Below are positions 7 through 15,569 of a stretch of DNA of 20,000 nucleotides, one piece after another. Under the pieces are notes generated by a model, which was not told the origin of the DNA, did no database searches, and was given only the letters and a program-made list of their open reading frames with translations. Both the position numbers and the translations under genes were made by a program. Numbering within the stretch: the stretch's first letter is position 1; each line of letters starts with the position of its first letter. Source of the DNA: Candidatus Borrarchaeum weybense (GTDB lineage: Archaea > Asgardarchaeota > Sifarchaeia > Borrarchaeales > Borrarchaeaceae); contig JAHQJS010000005.1 in the NCBI GenBank assembly GCA_019057385.1, positions 169,481 through 189,480 of the forward strand. The letters run 5' to 3'.

Positions 7-585
7 GTGTTTGGCTATCGAGCAAATTCTATATTGGCAGAGTGGTGGTACTGGAATTACAAACTAGCTAAACACGAATCGCTCTTGAAAACCACCAACG
101 ATGCACATACTTCTAAAGAGTTACGTTGGTTATACCGAAAGCGGAAGCGGAGATTTAGGGATGTGATAAACAAAGTAGTGAATGACTTTGTAGTGCGCTG
201 TTGGTCACAAGGCGTATCAGAAATAGTATTAGGTGAGCTCACCAACATACGTGACTCAGCTCAATTCTCTAAGAAGTTGAACTCTATGATCCATCTGTTC
301 TGGAGTCATCGCTATCTGGTGACACGCATCAAGGAAAAAGCCGAGGAATATGGTATCACCGTAAGGGAAATAGATGAACAAGGGACCTCCTCAGTATGTC
401 CTCGATGTGCTGCTAAAAGAGTAGTACGGAAGGGTAGATTGTTCAATTGTCTACGGTGCAGACTTGAAGCCCATCGAGACGCCGTAGGTTGTGTCAATAT
501 AAGGCTCGCTCAGGGAGACCATCTCGCTGCGGGAGTCATTAACAGGGCGGTGGCACGCCCCTCATTTCTCACCATAGAAGTGTAG
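7..585 (+). CDS. tnpB: TnpB-family (IS200/IS605/IS1341) RNA-guided nuclease homolog, C-terminal part; 5' part lies outside the window
   Basis: ORF contains the E-containing motif 'IVLGELTNIRD', Zn-ribbon 'CPRCAAKRVVRKGRLFNCLRC' and terminal RuvC motif 'EAHRDAVGCVNIRLA'. ORF is open to the left edge and lacks the first RuvC aspartate region. Confidence 0.88.
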   Translation: MFGYRANSILAEWWYWNYKLAKHESLLKTTNDAHTSKELRWLYRKRKRRFRDVINKVVNDFVVRCWSQGVSEIVLGELTNIRDSAQFSKKLNSMIHLFWSHRYLVTRIKEKAEEYGITVREIDEQGTSSVCPRCAAKRVVRKGRLFNCLRCRLEAHRDAVGCVNIRLAQGDHLAAGVINRAVARPSFLTIEV

Positions 586-2138: not shown

Positions 2139-3380
2139 CTAAGTAAGTATATCATGGAAAGTGAGAAGTTCAATATCAAGAGGCTTTTTTGTAATATTTC
2201 CTAGTCGAGCACCGATCAGGTATTTGATATTTTTCTCTGAAGCAATATCTGATAATCGCTGAGTAATAACCCCATCAAACACAATTGCGTATACTCCTTC
2301 TATTGATTGAAGTTTATTAGTGAGTTCTGAAACTGGCATTGAATCTATTGAATTAAGTTCCTCACCAAATAAAACGGCTTCGGAAGTTTCTGTAATGTTC
2401 TCTGCGCTTTCTATAAGAGGTTCAGGTACTTTGGGAGTCTTTTTCTTCTTTTTAGTACTTTCTTTTGTGGGTTTTTTTACACTTTTAACTTCCATACGTG
2501 GTTTGTCTTGTTGACCTTCGAGGTATTGTTCAATGGGTATTTTGTTCCGAAGTTCTTTGATAATTTCTTTTCGTGACAATTCTTCAACTTCTCTATTCGG
2601 TGGAGCGCGAGCAACATAGTCTATCTCTGTAAGTTGCAACAGTTCTTTGAGGACAAGTTCGCCACCTCTGTCTCCATCTACGAATGCTATAGCGGTTTTC
2701 TTGCGTGAGAGAGTGACAATAGTATCTGGGATAGATGTGCCTTCAACAGCAATCACATTACGGAAACCATGCTTAAGAAGGTTTAATACGTCAGCTCGCC
2801 CTTCTACAATAATAATGGTCTCCGATTCGTTGATTTCTGGTCCAGCAGGAAGTTGATCCTTTCCATATTTCATGATGACTCCTAAACGTGCCGCTTTGAT
2901 AACTTCTTCGCTTATCCTCTGACTCTCAGGGATAACGTCATCTTCCCATGCTCTAAGGATCTGTGTTGCCCGATTTATGATATTTTTGCGTTTTTCATCA
3001 CGTACATCTTCGATTTTCGCCATGCTGACATGTGCTAAACATGGGCCGACTCTATCAACCGTTTCAAGAGCGGCCGTTAAGATGGCAGTTTCAATTTTAT
3101 CTAAACTTGAGGGAATGGTGATGATTCCGGTTGATTTCCCGCCTTTTGAATCAATACTTACTTGAATTCTACCAATGCGACCTGTCTTTTGAAGTTCGCG
3201 AATGTCTAATTCTTCGCCAAGTAATCCTTCTGTTTGACCAAAGATCGCGCCAACGACGTCTGACTTCTCAACCACTCCTTCAACTTCTATTTTTGCACGA
3301 ACAACATATTTTGTCGTGCTATAAGATTCAAAATTCTCATTCATAATTAACATCCTCCATTTTTCAAAAAGAGATTTCAC
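2139..3380 (-). CDS. dnaG: Archaeal DnaG-like primase / Toprim-domain protein
   Basis: 413 aa; archaeal DnaG N-terminus 'TTKYVVRAKIEVEGVVEKSDVVGAIFGQTEGLLGEELDIRELQKTGRIGRI', Toprim 'IIIVEGRADVLNLLKHGFRNVIAVEGT...KKTAIAFVDGDRGGELVLKEL'. Internal ATGs leave the exact start uncertain. Confidence 0.95.
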   Translation of the reverse strand: MKSLFEKWRMLIMNENFESYSTTKYVVRAKIEVEGVVEKSDVVGAIFGQTEGLLGEELDIRELQKTGRIGRIQVSIDSKGGKSTGIITIPSSLDKIETAILTAALETVDRVGPCLAHVSMAKIEDVRDEKRKNIINRATQILRAWEDDVIPESQRISEEVIKAARLGVIMKYGKDQLPAGPEINESETIIIVEGRADVLNLLKHGFRNVIAVEGTSIPDTIVTLSRKKTAIAFVDGDRGGELVLKELLQLTEIDYVARAPPNREVEELSRKEIIKELRNKIPIEQYLEGQQDKPRMEVKSVKKPTKESTKKKKKTPKVPEPLIESAENITETSEAVLFGEELNSIDSMPVSELTNKLQSIEGVYAIVFDGVITQRLSDIASEKNIKYLIGARLGNITKKPLDIELLTFHDILT

Positions 3381-3578: not shown

Positions 3579-4019
3579 TTAATCCTTACCGATAGTATGT
3601 TGACTCGATACTTGGAGTTTTGAGACTAACGAATTGAGGCTTTCAACATCTTTTGTCAGTCGACTAAACACTTTTTTCATTTTGAGCCAATGTACTAAAT
3701 CGGTTTTACAACGCTTTGATTCTAGATGACTTGCCAGTTTTTTTGTAAGTTTTTCTCCTTGATCATCGAAGTCTGCTAAGAGTATAATTCGATTATAATG
3801 TGCGAGTTGCTCTGCGACTTCAAATAAAGGGTCACCAACATGAACGCAATGAATAGGTCCTCGTATACCAAGTGCACGCAAGGATGCTTTGTCTTTTTTT
3901 CCTTCCACGATAATCGGTGTCCCGCTGTTTGAGTCTACCATCAAGTCGTGAAGGACATTGTCCATTTTTTCGGTCCAGTTTTGTGAAGGAAACTGACTAG
4001 TTCTCTTTTTTCTAGACAA
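3579..4019 (-). CDS. Small archaeal Toprim-domain protein (UPF0292-like)
   Basis: 146 aa; 'TPIIVEGKKDKASLRALGI...IILLADFDDQGEKLTKKLASHLES' Toprim motifs. Confidence 0.75.
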   Translation of the reverse strand: MSRKKRTSQFPSQNWTEKMDNVLHDLMVDSNSGTPIIVEGKKDKASLRALGIRGPIHCVHVGDPLFEVAEQLAHYNRIILLADFDDQGEKLTKKLASHLESKRCKTDLVHWLKMKKVFSRLTKDVESLNSLVSKLQVSSQHTIGKD

Positions 4020-11629: not shown

Positions 11630-11752
11630 GGACCTTCAGCATTCAGGTTTCCCATCTGCTCTCGCAAGGTAGTACTCCCACGAACGTCTCCAGACTTAAC
11701 TTCTGAGTTCGGCCGGGATCAGGTGTGGCCCTGGAGCGATGGCCGAAGATCC
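11630..11752 (-). rRNA. 5S ribosomal RNA
   Basis: Minus strand 'ggatcttcggccatcgctccagggccacacctgatcccggCCGAACtcaGAAGTTAAGtctggagacgttcgtgggagTACTaccttgcgagagcagatGGGAAAcctgaatgctgaaggtcc'. Signature 5S blocks, and the 5' and 3' termini pair. Confidence 0.93.
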
Positions 11753-11833: not shown

Positions 11834-11853
11834 TGGTGGGGACGGAGGGATTT
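11834..11853 (-). repeat. 20-bp exact copy of the 3' end of the downstream tRNA-Trp gene (att-like)
   Basis: tggtggggacggagggattt at 11834-11853 is identical to 12723-12742. Confidence 0.85.
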
Positions 11854-11857
11854 TCAG

Positions 11858-11878
11858 AAAGAGAGACTTTCTCTCTTT
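11858..11878. repeat. Perfect 9-bp hairpin followed by a T-rich tract on the + strand
   Basis: AAAGAGAGA-ctt-TCTCTCTTT then 'tatttttatt'. Confidence 0.65.
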
Positions 11879-11893
11879 TATTTTTATTAATAA

Positions 11894-12015
11894 GTGAGCT
11901 ACCTCGTGCGAAAGCATGGAGGCTTCCTGCTTCTCAGACGGACTCGATCCCCGTCCGTGACGGGTTACGGAGGTCGTATCTCCACAGGCTTAACATCCCT
12001 ACGCCCCGTAGGTAC
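11894..12015 (-). ncRNA. TnpB-associated right-end / omegaRNA (reRNA)-like sequence, copy 2
   Basis: Same sequence family as 5769-5886: 'gtacctacggggcgtagggatgttaagcctgtggagatacgacctccgtaacccgtcacggacggggatcgagtccgtctgagaagcaggaagcctccatgctttcgcacgaggtagctcac'. Confidence 0.65.
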
Positions 12016-12296
12016 GGTAAACGATGGTGAGACCATCGGAGTATGCACCTTGTCGGCAAGTGTTCCTGTTATCCCTCCAATTGCTGTTGATATCTTTCTC
12101 ATTTCACCTATATAACTTGAGGCAGACCCCCCATTGCACATGATGCAAGTGAACATACACATCTACCGCAATTCATCACCACGCTGAAGCGCTGGTGCTT
12201 TCTTGCTTAGCTACTAGCAAAAAAAGTAAGATCAAACCTATAAAAACTTCTATTGAAAGAAAGCAAGAGTAAGATGACCCAGGAGTAGACGCCCTC

Positions 12297-12617
12297 TCAA
12301 AGTTTTGGGTCCGGGTCTTCGGTGTTTTCGCCACCTTCTTGTATCAGCAGCATCCGCATTGTTGACGATGCATGCCGGAATACCATTGCTTCTTGGTACT
12401 CAGGATCAGCTATCCAAGCCTCAACGTGAGTTTTGCTCGGAAACTCTAATATTACCATCCTATCTGTGTATGTCTCTCCTTCCAATGTAGTAACCGGTTC
12501 CCCGCGTGTGAGAAACTTCCCTTGGTACTTCTTCACTATGGGTGGTGTCCTATCCGTGTATTTACGATAGGTATCTGGATCATGGATCGCCATCATCGAA
12601 ATTACATACGCTGGCAT
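12297..12617 (-). CDS. DUF1330-like small protein
   Basis: 106 aa; 'MPAYVISMMAIHDPDTYRKYTDRTPPIVKKYQGKFLTRGEPVTTLEGETYTDRMVILEFPSKTHVEAWIADPEYQEAMVFRHASSTMRMLLIQ', matching the DUF1330 pattern (Y...y......+yGG+fl.RGg....lEG.w...R.VvleFPs...A..w..s.eYq....R...a). Confidence 0.85.
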   Translation of the reverse strand: MPAYVISMMAIHDPDTYRKYTDRTPPIVKKYQGKFLTRGEPVTTLEGETYTDRMVILEFPSKTHVEAWIADPEYQEAMVFRHASSTMRMLLIQEGGENTEDPDPKL

Positions 12618-12752
12618 TTATTACTCTCCTATGGATATTGTTGAGTTCAACTCCACCGCGTTCAAAAGATTTGAATCGGTTAAGAGAAAAATATCATCTT
12701 ACTGTATGATGATTCTTAAAAGTGGTGGGGACGGAGGGATTTGAACCCCCGA

Positions 12753-12833
12753 TTCGAAATGAGACTTCCCTAATTTTGACTGATGTTTTTTGCCTCATTC
12801 TTCCGCCAACCGTGAGAACCACGCCACGTGTTG
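12753..12833 (-). other. Predicted non-canonical intron (~81 nt) in the tRNA-Trp variable region
   Basis: 86 nt separate the anticodon stem from the T stem. Removing 81 nt leaves V-region 'TGGTC'. Flanks fit a relaxed bulge-helix-bulge (cgat/ttcg, 3 of 4 pairs). Exact ends are inferred. Confidence 0.6.
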
Positions 12834-12842
12834 CCATCGGGT

Positions 12843-12906
12843 TTCTCTGGTAAGCACAACTCCAGAAGATCTTCATCCTTCCGTCAGTTTTTGCTATTTA
12901 CAACCT
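12843..12906 (-). other. Predicted canonical-position (37/38) intron of tRNA-Trp, 64 nt
   Basis: Lies between 'tcgggctCCAg' and 'acccga'; restores a 7-nt anticodon loop CTCCAGA. Confidence 0.8.
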
Positions 12907-13084
12907 CTGGAGCCCGACGTGCTACATTACCTCATACTAACCTACCAGAGATTAATACGAACTGGCTACACTACGTCCCCAATTGCTACAATTGTAGACA
13001 CGAAATAGTGATCAGGTTTTGTTTTAAATTTTACTAAAAATGATAAATTAGTTGTTTCTCAACAAAAAAATAGCCCAGAACAGG

Positions 13085-14233
13085 TTATTCTTTTCTTATA
13101 AAACCCACAAGTTTCTTCAAATCGTCCGCAGTCGCTGATGGACCTACAAGTAATACTTTCTTGCGCCCATCCCCTCCTACATGACAATAGAGTACCATAT
13201 TTTCTGTTCCTACGATGTATATGTCGCAATCCTCTACATCACTTAAAACTAATGTATTTTTAGTTCTCTCTTTTTGTAACTCACCTTTCTGTAACAAGGT
13301 GTCTTGAAACTTTTCATCCCTGACGGCGTCTAAAAGAAACCCAATATCGCCCCAGAGACTCCCATCAACTGTGATATAGTAATATTCATTGAATCGTGAA
13401 TTAAGGTCATTTGAGAAATCTAACGGTCCAAGTGGTTGAGATTTTTTGTAAGAAAGCCGCACAACATCATCAGCATCATCACCTTCGCTAACAGCCTCTT
13501 TTATAGCCTGTGTTAGTTTATCTAACACAACATCACCTGAGAAGGCCCTTAACCATGCAAAAATCGTTCCGCTCCAAATCATGGTGTTAATTCCAAAAAC
13601 CACATCTGCACCAACTTTTTCTAATGTGCTTGCATCCGGTTTCTCACGAAATTGAACGCATTCCAAAAGGGGGTATTCGCCCTCTTCTAAGAGAATACAT
13701 TCAGCAATACCCATTTGTGTCGGATCGTGATGATCCTGGACTGAGGCTTGCAAACCTATAATTTTTTCTGGATGTTCCAACGTCTTATTTAAGAGGACAA
13801 GTTCAGCATTGATGAATGCATCTGCTTTATCATGATCACACGGCATAAAGATTAGGAGAATTTCTTCTGCACAATCCTCGTTGATCCATCCCGCATTCTT
13901 GCATTTCTTACATTGATTCACATGGGAGTAAATTATTCGTGCAATTGCAGCTGGAAACATATGTCCATTAGAACGGACATAAGGAGGCTCTTTAAGGACT
14001 ATATCGATTTTAGCCTCTTTAATCCACGATTGCATTGCATCATCCTCTTTGATGGCGAGTATAACTTGTAGAGGTGTCCGTTCTCGAACACGCAGAACAT
14101 CGGCCAGCAATATCCTAGTTTTATCTCGTTTTATCTTCAATAAGTGCTTAGGAAATCCTCCAAATCGCGTTGCTCGTCCCCCAGCCGATGTTAAAAGATA
14201 TTTCTCTGTGTGATGGATTTTATCCTGTGCCAT
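13085..14233 (-). CDS. Sugar-phosphate nucleotidyltransferase (mannose-1-phosphate guanylyltransferase-like)
   Basis: 382 aa; N-terminal 'LLTSAGGRATRFGGFPKHLLKI' NTP-transferase-like signature, 'LLIFMPCDHDKADAFI', 'FREKPDASTLEKVGADVVFGINTMIWSGTIFAWLR'. Confidence 0.72.
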   Translation of the reverse strand: MAQDKIHHTEKYLLTSAGGRATRFGGFPKHLLKIKRDKTRILLADVLRVRERTPLQVILAIKEDDAMQSWIKEAKIDIVLKEPPYVRSNGHMFPAAIARIIYSHVNQCKKCKNAGWINEDCAEEILLIFMPCDHDKADAFINAELVLLNKTLEHPEKIIGLQASVQDHHDPTQMGIAECILLEEGEYPLLECVQFREKPDASTLEKVGADVVFGINTMIWSGTIFAWLRAFSGDVVLDKLTQAIKEAVSEGDDADDVVRLSYKKSQPLGPLDFSNDLNSRFNEYYYITVDGSLWGDIGFLLDAVRDEKFQDTLLQKGELQKERTKNTLVLSDVEDCDIYIVGTENMVLYCHVGGDGRKKVLLVGPSATADDLKKLVGFIRKE

Positions 14234-14407
14234 TGCGTTCTCCTCATTTTACTCTTCAGACATCTCATCTGAACACCATGATTTTGGAAATGTCTCTTCA
14301 TTTCTACATTAAGTCAGGTTACAAATAAAAAAGTTAACTTCGATATCGAGAACTTCGCTCAGAATTATTATGAGCACCTTTTAATCCATGTAGTTATCTG
14401 AGCAATT

Positions 14408-14953
14408 TTAATTTATAAAGAAGTTCGTTTGATAGATATTTCCTGTGGCTGAGTAAATAGTGACCCTTACAGAACTATCTGTAAGAAAATAGTCTCCAGA
14501 TCCTTCACAATACAACTTAAAGCTAACGAAAATACGAGATGCAGGGATCGTCACCCCTAAATCATTCCCTTTAGGATTAAGTAAAGTCTCATCATCATTT
14601 AGATATACAGCTACTTTCCAGTTGTTATCCGTTCCAGATGTCCAAATTCTACCATCATTTTCTACTTCTAGATGTGTCAAAGTAATTTCTGTACCCCCTG
14701 TATTAGTAACAACAAAACTCATAGCATAATCCTGTGATGCACCTCCTGGTGCAACCGAGAACTTATTGGCTCTGTCTCCATCTCTCGCATGATATTGAAA
14801 ACCGCCAATCGCAATAGCTTCTTGCTGGCTTGCCACATAAAGAAATGCAAAACTAAAAAACATTATCACGGAGACTAATATTCCCAGAAATAAAATATAT
14901 GGAGTTTTAGCTTTGAGTTTATACACGACCCAGCCCTCTTTTCCCAAAGTCAA
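14408..14953 (-). CDS. Hypothetical membrane-anchored extracellular protein
   Basis: 181 aa; one N-terminal TM segment 'TPYILFLGILVSVIMFFSFAFLYVASQ', followed by a polar beta-rich-looking domain 'DYAMSFVVTNTGGTEITLTHLEVENDG'. Confidence 0.65.
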   Translation of the reverse strand: MTLGKEGWVVYKLKAKTPYILFLGILVSVIMFFSFAFLYVASQQEAIAIGGFQYHARDGDRANKFSVAPGGASQDYAMSFVVTNTGGTEITLTHLEVENDGRIWTSGTDNNWKVAVYLNDDETLLNPKGNDLGVTIPASRIFVSFKLYCEGSGDYFLTDSSVRVTIYSATGNIYQTNFFIN

Positions 14954-15131
14954 TTAACTTGATATCATTTTTTTCAAGTGAGTGGCTCTCAATATTAAAT
15001 GGAACAAATGGAACATATAGATTAAATGAATATAAGAAGCATATAGATCCAAGCTTCATGGATTCAGGGTTCACCATAAAGGTTAAAAAAATAAAAAACA
15101 AATCAAATAAAAAGCAATGCCACCAATAAGA

Positions 15132-15234
15132 GCCGCCGTAGCTCAGCTGGTAGAGCGTTGGACTTGTAATCCAATGACAGTTCTGCTATTCGCATAACTG
15201 GTGGAAGTCGAGGGTTCAAATCCCTCCGGCGGCT
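15132..15234 (+). tRNA. tRNA-Thr(TGT) with a 30-nt intron in the variable region
   Basis: Acceptor gccgccg/cggcggc, D-arm gctcagctggtagagc, anticodon arm ttgga-ctTGTaa-tccaa, T-arm gaggg-ttcaaat-ccctc. Removal of 15177-15206 gives a 73-nt tRNA with V-region TGGTC. Confidence 0.95.
15177..15206 (+). other. Non-canonical tRNA-Thr intron, 30 nt, variable region
   Basis: acagttctgctattcgcataactggtggaa; internal cagtt/aactg stem, relaxed BHB: ccaa + bulge tg^a, gtgg + bulge aa^g (3 of 4 central pairs). Confidence 0.8.
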
Positions 15235-15314
15235 TCATATACTGTCTCACATCCCAAAAGACAGTTTATTTAATGTGGGCGGGTGGTCTAGCATGGTATG
15301 ATTCCGGATTTGGG

Positions 15315-15343
15315 TGCCCTCCTCTTAATGAGGAGACAAAAAC
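15315..15343 (+). other. tRNA-Pro intron 1, canonical position 37/38, 29 nt
   Basis: Removal restores the 7-nt loop TTTGGGA; internal stem ctcct/aggag. Confidence 0.85.
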
Positions 15344-15351
15344 ATCCGGAG

Positions 15352-15415
15352 TTCTGCTTGGGTAACCCCAGCACGATACGGAATGACTCTACACGCGCGC
15401 TGTGGTGTCCCGTTT
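15352..15415 (+). other. tRNA-Pro intron 2, variable region, ~64 nt (ends approximate)
   Basis: 69 nt separate the anticodon stem from the T stem. Best relaxed-BHB placement leaves V-region AGGCC (3 of 4 central pairs). Confidence 0.6.
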
Positions 15416-15429
15416 GCCGGGAGTTCGAA

Positions 15430-15460
15430 GGAATAGAGAGAAACCCTCTCTTTCTGAAAA
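15430..15460 (+). other. tRNA-Pro intron 3, T-loop position 59/60, 31 nt
   Basis: Full BHB read directly: outer gggag/ctccc, central ttcg/tgaa (with G-U), bulges aa^g and aa^t, inner gaa/ttc and agagag/ctctct. Excision restores T-loop TTCGAAT. Confidence 0.88.
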
Positions 15461-15569
15461 TCTCCCCTCGCCCACCACTCTTTTTGAAAAATAAGTATTG
15501 AATAAGATAATATAATTCCTAAAATCATACTCTAATTCATTATTTGAAATGCTCAAGTTAGGTGTTTAG

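Follow-up and report, generated by a model that had tools for sequence, protein, structure and literature searches.

The 20,000-nucleotide stretch of Candidatus Borrarchaeum weybense DNA considered here (contig JAHQJS010000005.1, positions 169,481 to 189,480; the whole stretch is called the window) contains exactly three tRNA genes, for tRNA-Trp, tRNA-Thr, and tRNA-Pro, which were found with a structural scan for acceptor stems and T arms and by reading of the sequence. An earlier reading of the same DNA, made from its letters without database searches (the sequence-only reading), had placed the genes at the same coordinates and had described in each of them an insertion between the anticodon stem and the T stem, of ~81 nt in tRNA-Trp, 30 nt in tRNA-Thr, and ~64 nt in tRNA-Pro. 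All of this was borne out by our analysis, in which the extra sequence lies between G45 and the T stem, as were the 5-nt variable (V) loops expected after removal of the inserts (TGGTC, TGGTC, and AGGCC, respectively). That reading had missed a D-loop intron and a 37/38 intron in tRNA-Trp, as well as introns at 37/38 and 59/60 in tRNA-Pro. Once all the predicted introns are removed in silico, ARAGORN calls tRNA-Trp(cca), tRNA-Thr(tgt), and tRNA-Pro(tgg) as regular cloverleafs of 76-77 nt, and the restoration of the cloverleaf by intron removal also holds for 12 alleles of relatives. On the raw 20-kb window, ARAGORN called zero tRNAs, and an Rfam scan matched a 5S rRNA (11631-11750, minus strand) and one tRNA, tRNA-Thr(UGU) at 15132-15234, leaving tRNA-Trp and tRNA-Pro both unmatched.

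The host is a Borrarchaeum-like Asgard archaeon. The DUF1512 protein encoded in the window has 99% amino acid identity with that of a metagenome-assembled genome (MAG) of Candidatus Borrarchaeum yapensis and further matches in Promethearchaeota and Candidatus Sifarchaeum MAGs (Asgard lineages), the decarboxylase P0007 near tRNA-Pro is 100% identical to a protein named Candidatus Borrarchaeum sp., and the DNA identity between the window and B. yapensis is 84-96%. A 382-aa open reading frame (ORF) between the Trp and Thr genes has only six homologues (80-95% identity) among 5.8 billion proteins searched. The contigs of these six homologues, the B. yapensis contig, and two contigs found via the decarboxylase, all syntenic with the window, formed our comparison set. 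Below, W designates the window allele and L-numbers designate syntenic contigs from close relatives or metagenomes, L012 being B. yapensis. Among farther relatives reached via the decarboxylase, L135 and L136 keep the full V insert of tRNA-Pro, L138, L140, and L143 are no longer syntenic, and the L141 and L142 contigs are without a tRNA-Pro gene.

Splice motifs were scored with the standard bulge-helix-bulge (BHB) geometry, reportedly due to Thompson and Daniels and to Marck and Grosjean, in which a central helix of 4 bp (H) is combined with two bulges of 3 nt, each cut between its second and third bases, and with outer helices named h and h'. In the following list, introns are named by the tRNA positions that flank them, a slash within a sequence marks a splice junction, and H 3/4 means that three of the four central pairs are formed.

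12723-12980, minus strand: tRNA-Trp(CCA) gene, 258 nt including the encoded CCA (in silico splicing, ARAGORN)
12926-12961, minus strand: predicted Trp D-loop intron, 36 nt, between G18 and G19 (H 3/4, h' 12 bp)
12843-12906, minus strand: predicted canonical Trp 37/38 intron, 64 nt (H 3/4, outer helix of 7 bp formed by the anticodon stem)
12801-12834, minus strand: predicted Trp 45/46 intron, 34 nt, GCAACACG...TTGGCGGAA (motif scores, counterpart in L012)
12800, minus strand: predicted single-nucleotide Trp exon G46 (required for the TGGTC V loop that is seen uninterrupted in L010 and L011)
12753-12799, minus strand: predicted Trp 46/47 intron, 47 nt, AATGAGGC...CATTTCGAA (motif scan and motif scores)
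15132-15234, plus strand: tRNA-Thr(UGU) gene, one predicted intron, CCA not encoded (Rfam tRNA model, 68.1 bits; ARAGORN after splicing)
15177-15206, plus strand: predicted Thr 45/46 intron, 30 nt, ACAGTTCTGCTATTCGCATAACTGGTGGAA (exact absence in relatives, motif scores)
15277-15477, plus strand: tRNA-Pro(UGG) gene, 201 nt including CCA, three predicted introns (in silico splicing, ARAGORN)
15315-15343, plus strand: predicted canonical Pro 37/38 intron, 29 nt (H 3/4, outer helix 7 bp; exactly absent in L006)
15352-15415, plus strand: Pro V-loop insert at 45/46, 64 nt (restored AG/GCC V loop)
15430-15460, plus strand: predicted Pro T-loop intron at 59/60, 31 nt (canonical hBHBh', H 4/4, outer helix 5 bp)

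The 3' CCA is encoded in the Trp (12723-12726) and Pro (15474-15477) genes of the window; at the end of its Thr gene (15232-15237) the window reads ...GGCTTCA, and L006, L009, and L012 read ...GGCTCCA.

Alleles with and without the inserts

We looked into the presence of the inserts in the relatives. In tRNA-Thr(UGU), the Rfam alignment places an insertion of 30-31 nt at model positions 44 to 45-46, between the anticodon and T stems. L001-5, L011, and L135 carry the 30-nt insert; L006-8, L009, L012, and L136 lack it exactly (...CCAATG/GTCGAGGG..., that is, TG/GTC). Because these intron-less alleles lack the insert precisely, the Thr junction is fixed at G45/G46.

The extra sequence in the V loop of tRNA-Trp(CCA) amounts to 81 nt (12753-12833), the removal of which yields TGGTC, and it is exactly missing in L010 and L011 (TGGTC) and in L001 (TAATC). 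As a whole, the window gene consists of five exon pieces and four predicted introns, with a mature product of 77 nt, and its D-loop intron is exactly absent in L001 and L010. Five Trp alleles (W, L012, L011, L006, and L010) carry 3-5 introns each, distributed over seven sites (D-loop 18/19, 22/23, 32/33, 37/38, 45/46, 46/47, and 59/60), and all splice in silico to an identical 77-nt tRNA. The L006 gene (3912-4200) has five introns, the L010 gene (2012-2250) has introns at 22/23 and 32/33 in place of the D-loop and V-loop introns, and a sixth allele, L001, has two introns and slightly different exons. In tRNA-Pro, the V insert is kept in 7/7 alleles and the T-loop intron is exactly absent in L009 and L012 and is likewise missing from L135, whose T arm is of the Thr type. 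Exon 1 of tRNA-Pro has 0/38 variable columns versus 14/29 in the Pro 37/38 intron. Orthologues that are intron-less at the exact junction were thus found for Thr 45/46, Trp 45/46, and Trp 46/47, and, as read from these alleles, introns turn over rapidly in this clade, by both gain and loss.

On this comparative evidence, the inserts are very probably archaeal protein-spliced (BHB) tRNA introns. The failure of ARAGORN on all three genes and of Rfam on Trp and Pro, together with a truncated Trp 3' end close by, would also suit decaying pseudogenes that have taken up junk DNA or pieces of mobile elements and undergo no splicing. We consider this highly improbable: the exons are 100% conserved although the flanking genes are only 80-95% identical and the introns diverge, each allele splices to a perfect cloverleaf, and the presence/absence junctions are exact. 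Slighter still, in our view, is the chance that the inserts persist in the mature tRNA and form an additional variable arm of the class II kind. Each insert can indeed fold as a hairpin, and the lowest-energy structure predicted for pre-tRNA-Thr is a cloverleaf that has an additional arm. However, Thr, Trp, and Pro tRNAs belong to class I and not to the Leu/Ser/Tyr type, very close relatives are exactly without the insert, its sequence and length vary (29-81 nt), and inserts of identical appearance occur in the D, T, and anticodon loops of these genes, positions at which an additional arm would disrupt folding.

The V-loop inserts of tRNA-Trp and tRNA-Pro

The sequence-only reading had taken the Trp V-loop sequence for a single insertion. 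According to the alleles, the 81 nt are instead two introns, of 34 nt at 45/46 and of 47 nt at 46/47, flanking the single nucleotide G46, because B. yapensis has the 45/46 intron alone and nothing after G46. Its Trp gene reads CCCGATG/ACAAAACGTGGATTCACGGGTTGGCGGAT/GTCGGGGG, where a 29-nt intron (TG/ACAAAACG...GGCGGAT/GTC) is followed by G46 and then directly by TC, the 46/47 intron being absent. In the BHB scan, the top-ranked candidate in the Trp gene covers the last 47 nt only of the 81-nt insertion, and its motif is perfect, with an H of 4/4 and an h' of 7 bp. With these 47 nt removed, the gene reads ...GGTTGGCGGAA/GTCGGGGG, which is close to the Thr junction ...ACTGGTGGAA/GTCGAGGG. The Trp genes of L006-8 have the same three-element order as the window (45/46 intron, G46, 46/47 intron). 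In L006, the 4/4 helix of the 46/47 intron is kept through a G.U to G:C change, h' is 7 bp as in W, and the reading with two introns gives 4/4 and 3/4 central pairs and the conserved TGGTC V loop.

A single 81-nt intron at 46/47 (TGG/.../TC) would leave the same mature TGGTC in the window, with a central helix of 3/4. We regard it as improbable, since B. yapensis has only the first part, of 29-34 nt, followed directly by GTC, and since in L006 (80 nt) such an intron would have an H of 2/4, an h' of 1, and a deviant, nonconserved TGATC V loop; moreover, the best candidate of the Trp scan is the inner 47-nt piece. The two Trp introns are interlocked. The H strand of the 46/47 intron is the 3' end of the 45/46 intron (CGGA), and H is 4/4 only when the latter is still present; if the 45/46 intron were taken out first, H would fall to 3/4 in W and to 2/4 in L006. 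As the 46/47 motif is built from the 3' end of the 45/46 intron, the downstream intron is predicted to be cut first.

The 64-nt V insert of tRNA-Pro, scored as one intron, has an H of 3/4 and an h' of 0 in all seven alleles. It is possible, though rather less likely than not, that this insert also consists of two stacked introns, A (32 nt, 15352-15383) and B (32 nt, 15384-15415), as in tRNA-Trp. The H strand of B would then be the 3' end of A (ACGG), and B would reach 4/4 in W, L006, and L135, versus 3/4 for a single intron. Part A (...GATACGGAA, ending in ACGGAA) also matches the 45/46 introns in its size (29-34 nt), its 5' AGTTCTGCT, and its ...GGAA 3' end, and it is nearly invariant, the variation being located at the 3' end of B. 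On the other side, the H of B drops to 2/4 in L011 and L012, two alleles in which a single intron would have 3/4, A or B alone is found in 0/7 alleles, and the h' of A is 0; in L001 and L136, the H of B is 3/4. A metagenome scan with a loose Pro pattern (ATCCGGA..G..CCGGGAGTTCGAA) gave at least 120 matches; among the matches listed, none was a tRNA-Pro of this clade, and they corresponded to protein-coding sequence and a few unrelated tRNA genes.

Two of these introns show conserved internal sequence. In the Pro V insert, the 50 nt at the 5' end (15352-15401) have 12% variable columns in the seven alleles, versus 48% in the Pro 37/38 intron, and changes in the insert fall mostly within or beside two predicted hairpin loops; no C/D or H/ACA boxes of a guide RNA were seen in it, and it had no Rfam hit. 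The Trp 37/38 intron has a conserved core, CUGA..GGAUGA..UCUUCUGGAG. This core, AAACUGACGGAAGGAUGAAGAUCUUCUGGAG, combines CUGA and GAUGA with a segment whose sequence complements the anticodon loop, and it is reminiscent of the box C/D guide that lies inside the tRNA-Trp introns of Euryarchaeota. In the window, however, the terminal C and D boxes of such a guide were absent from the intron and Rfam gave no hit.

Splice motifs and the proposed order of cleavage

The scoring rule is validated by the canonical 37/38 and 59/60 introns, which score as expected, with outer helices of 7, 7, and 5 bp (Trp 37/38, Pro 37/38, and Pro 59/60, respectively). All the 45/46 introns have motifs of a relaxed HBh' type, in which H is formed with exon bases 40-43 and is usually 3/4, with the mismatch usually at position 43, the outer helix is absent, and h' measures 3-9 bp in Thr and Trp and 0 in the Pro V insert. 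Both the Trp 45/46 and the Thr introns of the window have an H of 3/4 with an A43.G mismatch, with an h' of 4 and 5 bp, respectively. The sequence-only reading had counted three of four central pairs in each of the three V inserts; the count is correct at the boundaries it used and does not extend to the Trp 46/47 intron, which has 4/4.

We propose that, in the pre-tRNA, the 3' side of the anticodon stem (nucleotides 40-43) pairs with the four nucleotides that lie just within the 3' end of the intron. This pairing would result in a central helix of 3-4 bp flanked by two bulges of 3 nt; beyond it would come h', formed inside the intron, and there would be no outer helix, hence the relaxed HBh' type. 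EndA would then cleave both bulges, at G45/intron and intron/G46, and RtcB would ligate the exons into a normal 5-nt variable loop, two steps that are taken from established knowledge of both enzymes. In tRNA-Trp, the 46/47 intron would best be cut before removal of the 45/46 intron, which implies ordered splicing. The V-loop motifs also compete with the 37/38 motifs, whose outer helix is the anticodon stem, and the pre-tRNA would have to refold between cuts. No EndA gene is present in the 20-kb window. An (alpha-beta)2 EndA with an L1 loop is known from four other Asgard MAGs (Odin-, Loki-, Thor-, and Heimdallarchaeota; PMC5829648), and the relaxed motifs described here (H 3/4, no outer helix) would fit the broad specificity of that enzyme. 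They also agree with the sequence-only reading, which had predicted a splicing endonuclease of relaxed specificity.

Several points weigh against spliced introns at these sites. Splicing itself we infer from sequence. A brute-force scan yields hundreds of BHB-like candidates in these same sequences, and because such candidates are frequent by chance, a BHB motif alone is weak evidence, the scan being too noisy for placing introns without comparative data. The pre-tRNA-Thr is predicted to fold at -41.4 kcal/mol as a cloverleaf with an intron hairpin versus -36.8 kcal/mol with the BHB enforced, a gap of 4.6 kcal/mol; V-loop motifs compete with the cloverleaf because the anticodon stem must give up its 3' strand to H. 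For tRNA-Pro, we infer the V junction from the restored AGGCC loop, with no intron-less allele among seven, and the h' of 0 obtained with a single intron adds to these points.

Probable intron transfer, tRNA-end relics, and known systems

Introns at 45/46 (G45/G46) occur in this clade in tRNA-Thr(UGU), -Thr(GGU), -Trp, and -Pro. Those at 59/60 are as common (in tRNA-Pro, -Trp, -Thr(GGU), and -Leu(UAA)), and five other sites are also used. With introns at seven or more sites, the V loop counts as only one of several hot spots. The sequence-only reading had proposed a lineage-specific spread of introns at the V site: the use of one and the same site, with exact gain and loss, agrees with this proposal, whereas the equal frequency of 59/60 introns means that the V loop is not a special target. 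Further multi-intron tRNA genes are carried by L003 (~2640-2975, minus strand) and L007 (2-104, minus strand). The tRNA-Thr(GGU) genes of these two contigs have a 45/46 intron, accompanied in L003 by one at 59/60, and tRNA-Leu(UAA) has D-loop, anticodon-stem, and T-loop introns in the relatives.

We then compared introns between tRNA genes. The T-loop intron of the window Pro gene is 90-94% identical to those of the Trp genes of relatives (0/5000 shuffles), which makes a convincing case, at the level of sequence, for transfer between tRNA genes. An alignment of V-loop introns across tRNAs had been suggested by the sequence-only reading as a check. It gave 65% identity between Thr and Trp(L006), a value reached by 30/3000 shuffles (P about 0.01). 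The 7-mer TTCTGCT that was said to be shared by the Thr and Pro inserts is present and extends to a 9-mer, AGTTCTGCT; a shared substring of at least 9 is found in about 0.5% of shuffles, while the 7-mer alone is not significant, since at least 7 are shared in about 7%. Much of the similarity at the ends of V introns is forced by pairing to similar exons. As a sign of transfer, V-intron similarity is only suggestive, and the case for transfer is that of the T-loop intron.

A further link between neighboring genes is seen in L135, whose tRNA-Pro gene (2145-2314) has its own body and a T arm (GTCGAGGGTTCAAATCCCTCC) identical to that of the adjacent Thr gene. The 21 nt of the Thr T arm start right after the V intron, and the chimera still folds as tRNA-Pro. 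It is the probable product of gene conversion between the two genes. We propose that at least some introns move between tRNA genes, probably via DNA-level recombination or gene conversion.

Relics of tRNA 3' ends were found for both Trp and Pro. The Trp relic lies 83 nt upstream of the 5S rRNA gene, a position that is occupied by the complete Trp gene in L001 and L012.

11834-11895, minus strand: Trp 3'-end relic, composed of most of a T-loop intron and TCCCTCCGTCCCCACCA (sequence, comparison with L013 and L012)

The region between this relic and the complete Trp gene of the window (11896-12722) contains a DUF1330 gene and a 323-nt piece. The 323-nt piece is absent in L013; Rfam gave no match for it, and its predicted fold is unremarkable (z = -1.4). 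The complete Trp gene of the window is unique in being without a T-loop intron. The arrangement resembles the outcome of an insertion or integration event at the T loop, by which the gene would have received a new 3' end free of the intron. The 5S rRNA gene beside tRNA-Trp is on the opposite strand in L006 (4797-4916) and L008 (2959-3078) relative to the window, L001, L003, and L010. In L136 (2383-3820), L141 (~540-590), and L142 (~800-850), relics of the Pro 3' end, some of which include the T-loop intron, adjoin a segment of ~1.1 kb with a weak LAGLIDADG_3-like ORF. The segment is inserted between the Pro and decarboxylase genes, which suggests an element integrating at the T arm of tRNA-Pro.

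These observations can be joined into a tentative scheme, which we think somewhat unlikely to hold as a whole. BHB introns would be currently mobile and would land beside a resident intron whose 3' end (...GGCGGAA or ...ACGGAA) mimics the exon strand, resulting in a 1-nt exon, stacking, and an obligatory order of removal; they would spread by gene conversion between neighbors, tied to integration at tRNA 3' ends.

Much of this has precedents: Asgard tRNAs with several introns, introns in the V region, transposition of introns, and neighboring introns whose removal depends on order have all been published before. The sequence-only reading was right to treat noncanonical archaeal tRNA introns as established, BHB introns in the variable region, among other positions outside 37/38, being textbook knowledge according to the introduction of PMC3241643. 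Multi-intron tRNAs and intron transposition are known from Thermoproteales (PMC4033280, PMC4090602), with "up to three" introns per gene (PMC4033280, PMC8450103). Like the introns of Thermoproteales and TACK archaea (Marck and Grosjean 2003; Sugahara 2008), those described here lie outside 37/38, have relaxed HBh' motifs, and occur several per gene. The former depend on a broad-specificity EndA, a likeness that we propose here from the motifs. In contrast, the host here is a mesophilic-looking Asgard archaeon of roughly 39% GC, with up to four introns per gene in the window and five in the L006 Trp gene.

Closer relatives, the Atabeyarchaeia and Freyarchaeia, belong to the same Asgard superphylum, and introns, often noncanonical and multiple, are present in 92-95% of their tRNA genes (Valentin-Alvarado 2024; PMC11291895). 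The table in that report gives up to four introns per gene, and four observed in total for Trp(CCA). Our genes come from a different class (Borrarchaeia/Sifarchaeia), the five introns of L006 exceed the four tabulated for Atabeyarchaeia, and we add to that report the allele-level gain and loss, the predicted exon of a single base, and the presence of shared introns in different tRNAs. Near-identical introns in different tRNA species were ascribed to large-scale transposition by Fujishima 2010, as cited in PMC4033280 and PMC4090602. The Pro and Trp T-loop introns resemble that case, unlike the V-loop introns, whose similarity is weak, and the chimeric Pro gene of L135 points to gene conversion. 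The tRNAscan-SE 2.0 paper (PMC8450103) describes close introns of which one is removed before the motif of the next can form. In tRNA-Trp, overlapping motifs likewise appear to impose an order, but the spacing is a single nucleotide and the 3' end of the upstream intron builds the downstream motif, so that the second intron would go first. A literature search, itself of incomplete coverage, returned no paper on tRNA introns of Borrarchaeota and none on a one-base exon between BHB introns.

The present data extend intron-rich Asgard tRNA genes to another class, Borrarchaeia/Sifarchaeia, and provide a clean natural experiment, in which alleles of one gene have 2-5 introns at seven sites and the same tRNA. 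The predicted one-base exon and its neighbor-built motif offer a concrete substrate for studying the order and limits of EndA recognition, and the chimeric and relic tRNA ends are material for asking how introns spread. Since standard finders miss such genes (ARAGORN found 0/3 and Rfam 1/3), the tRNA complements of such MAGs are expected to be under-called, with skewed inferences on completeness or codon usage as a result.

Beside the tRNA genes, the window encodes archaeal PheRS alpha and beta, a synthetase of the TyrRS/TrpRS type, DnaG-like Toprim proteins, and the DUF1512 protein. An ORF fragment at its edge (7-585, plus strand) is TnpB/Cas12f-like (OrfB_IS605 and TNB domain), and a homologue of full-length type is found in L135 (5744-6826). 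Two adjacent ORFs on the minus strand (2139-3380 and 3579-4019) both have a DnaG-like Toprim domain and may represent a split or duplicated primase gene.

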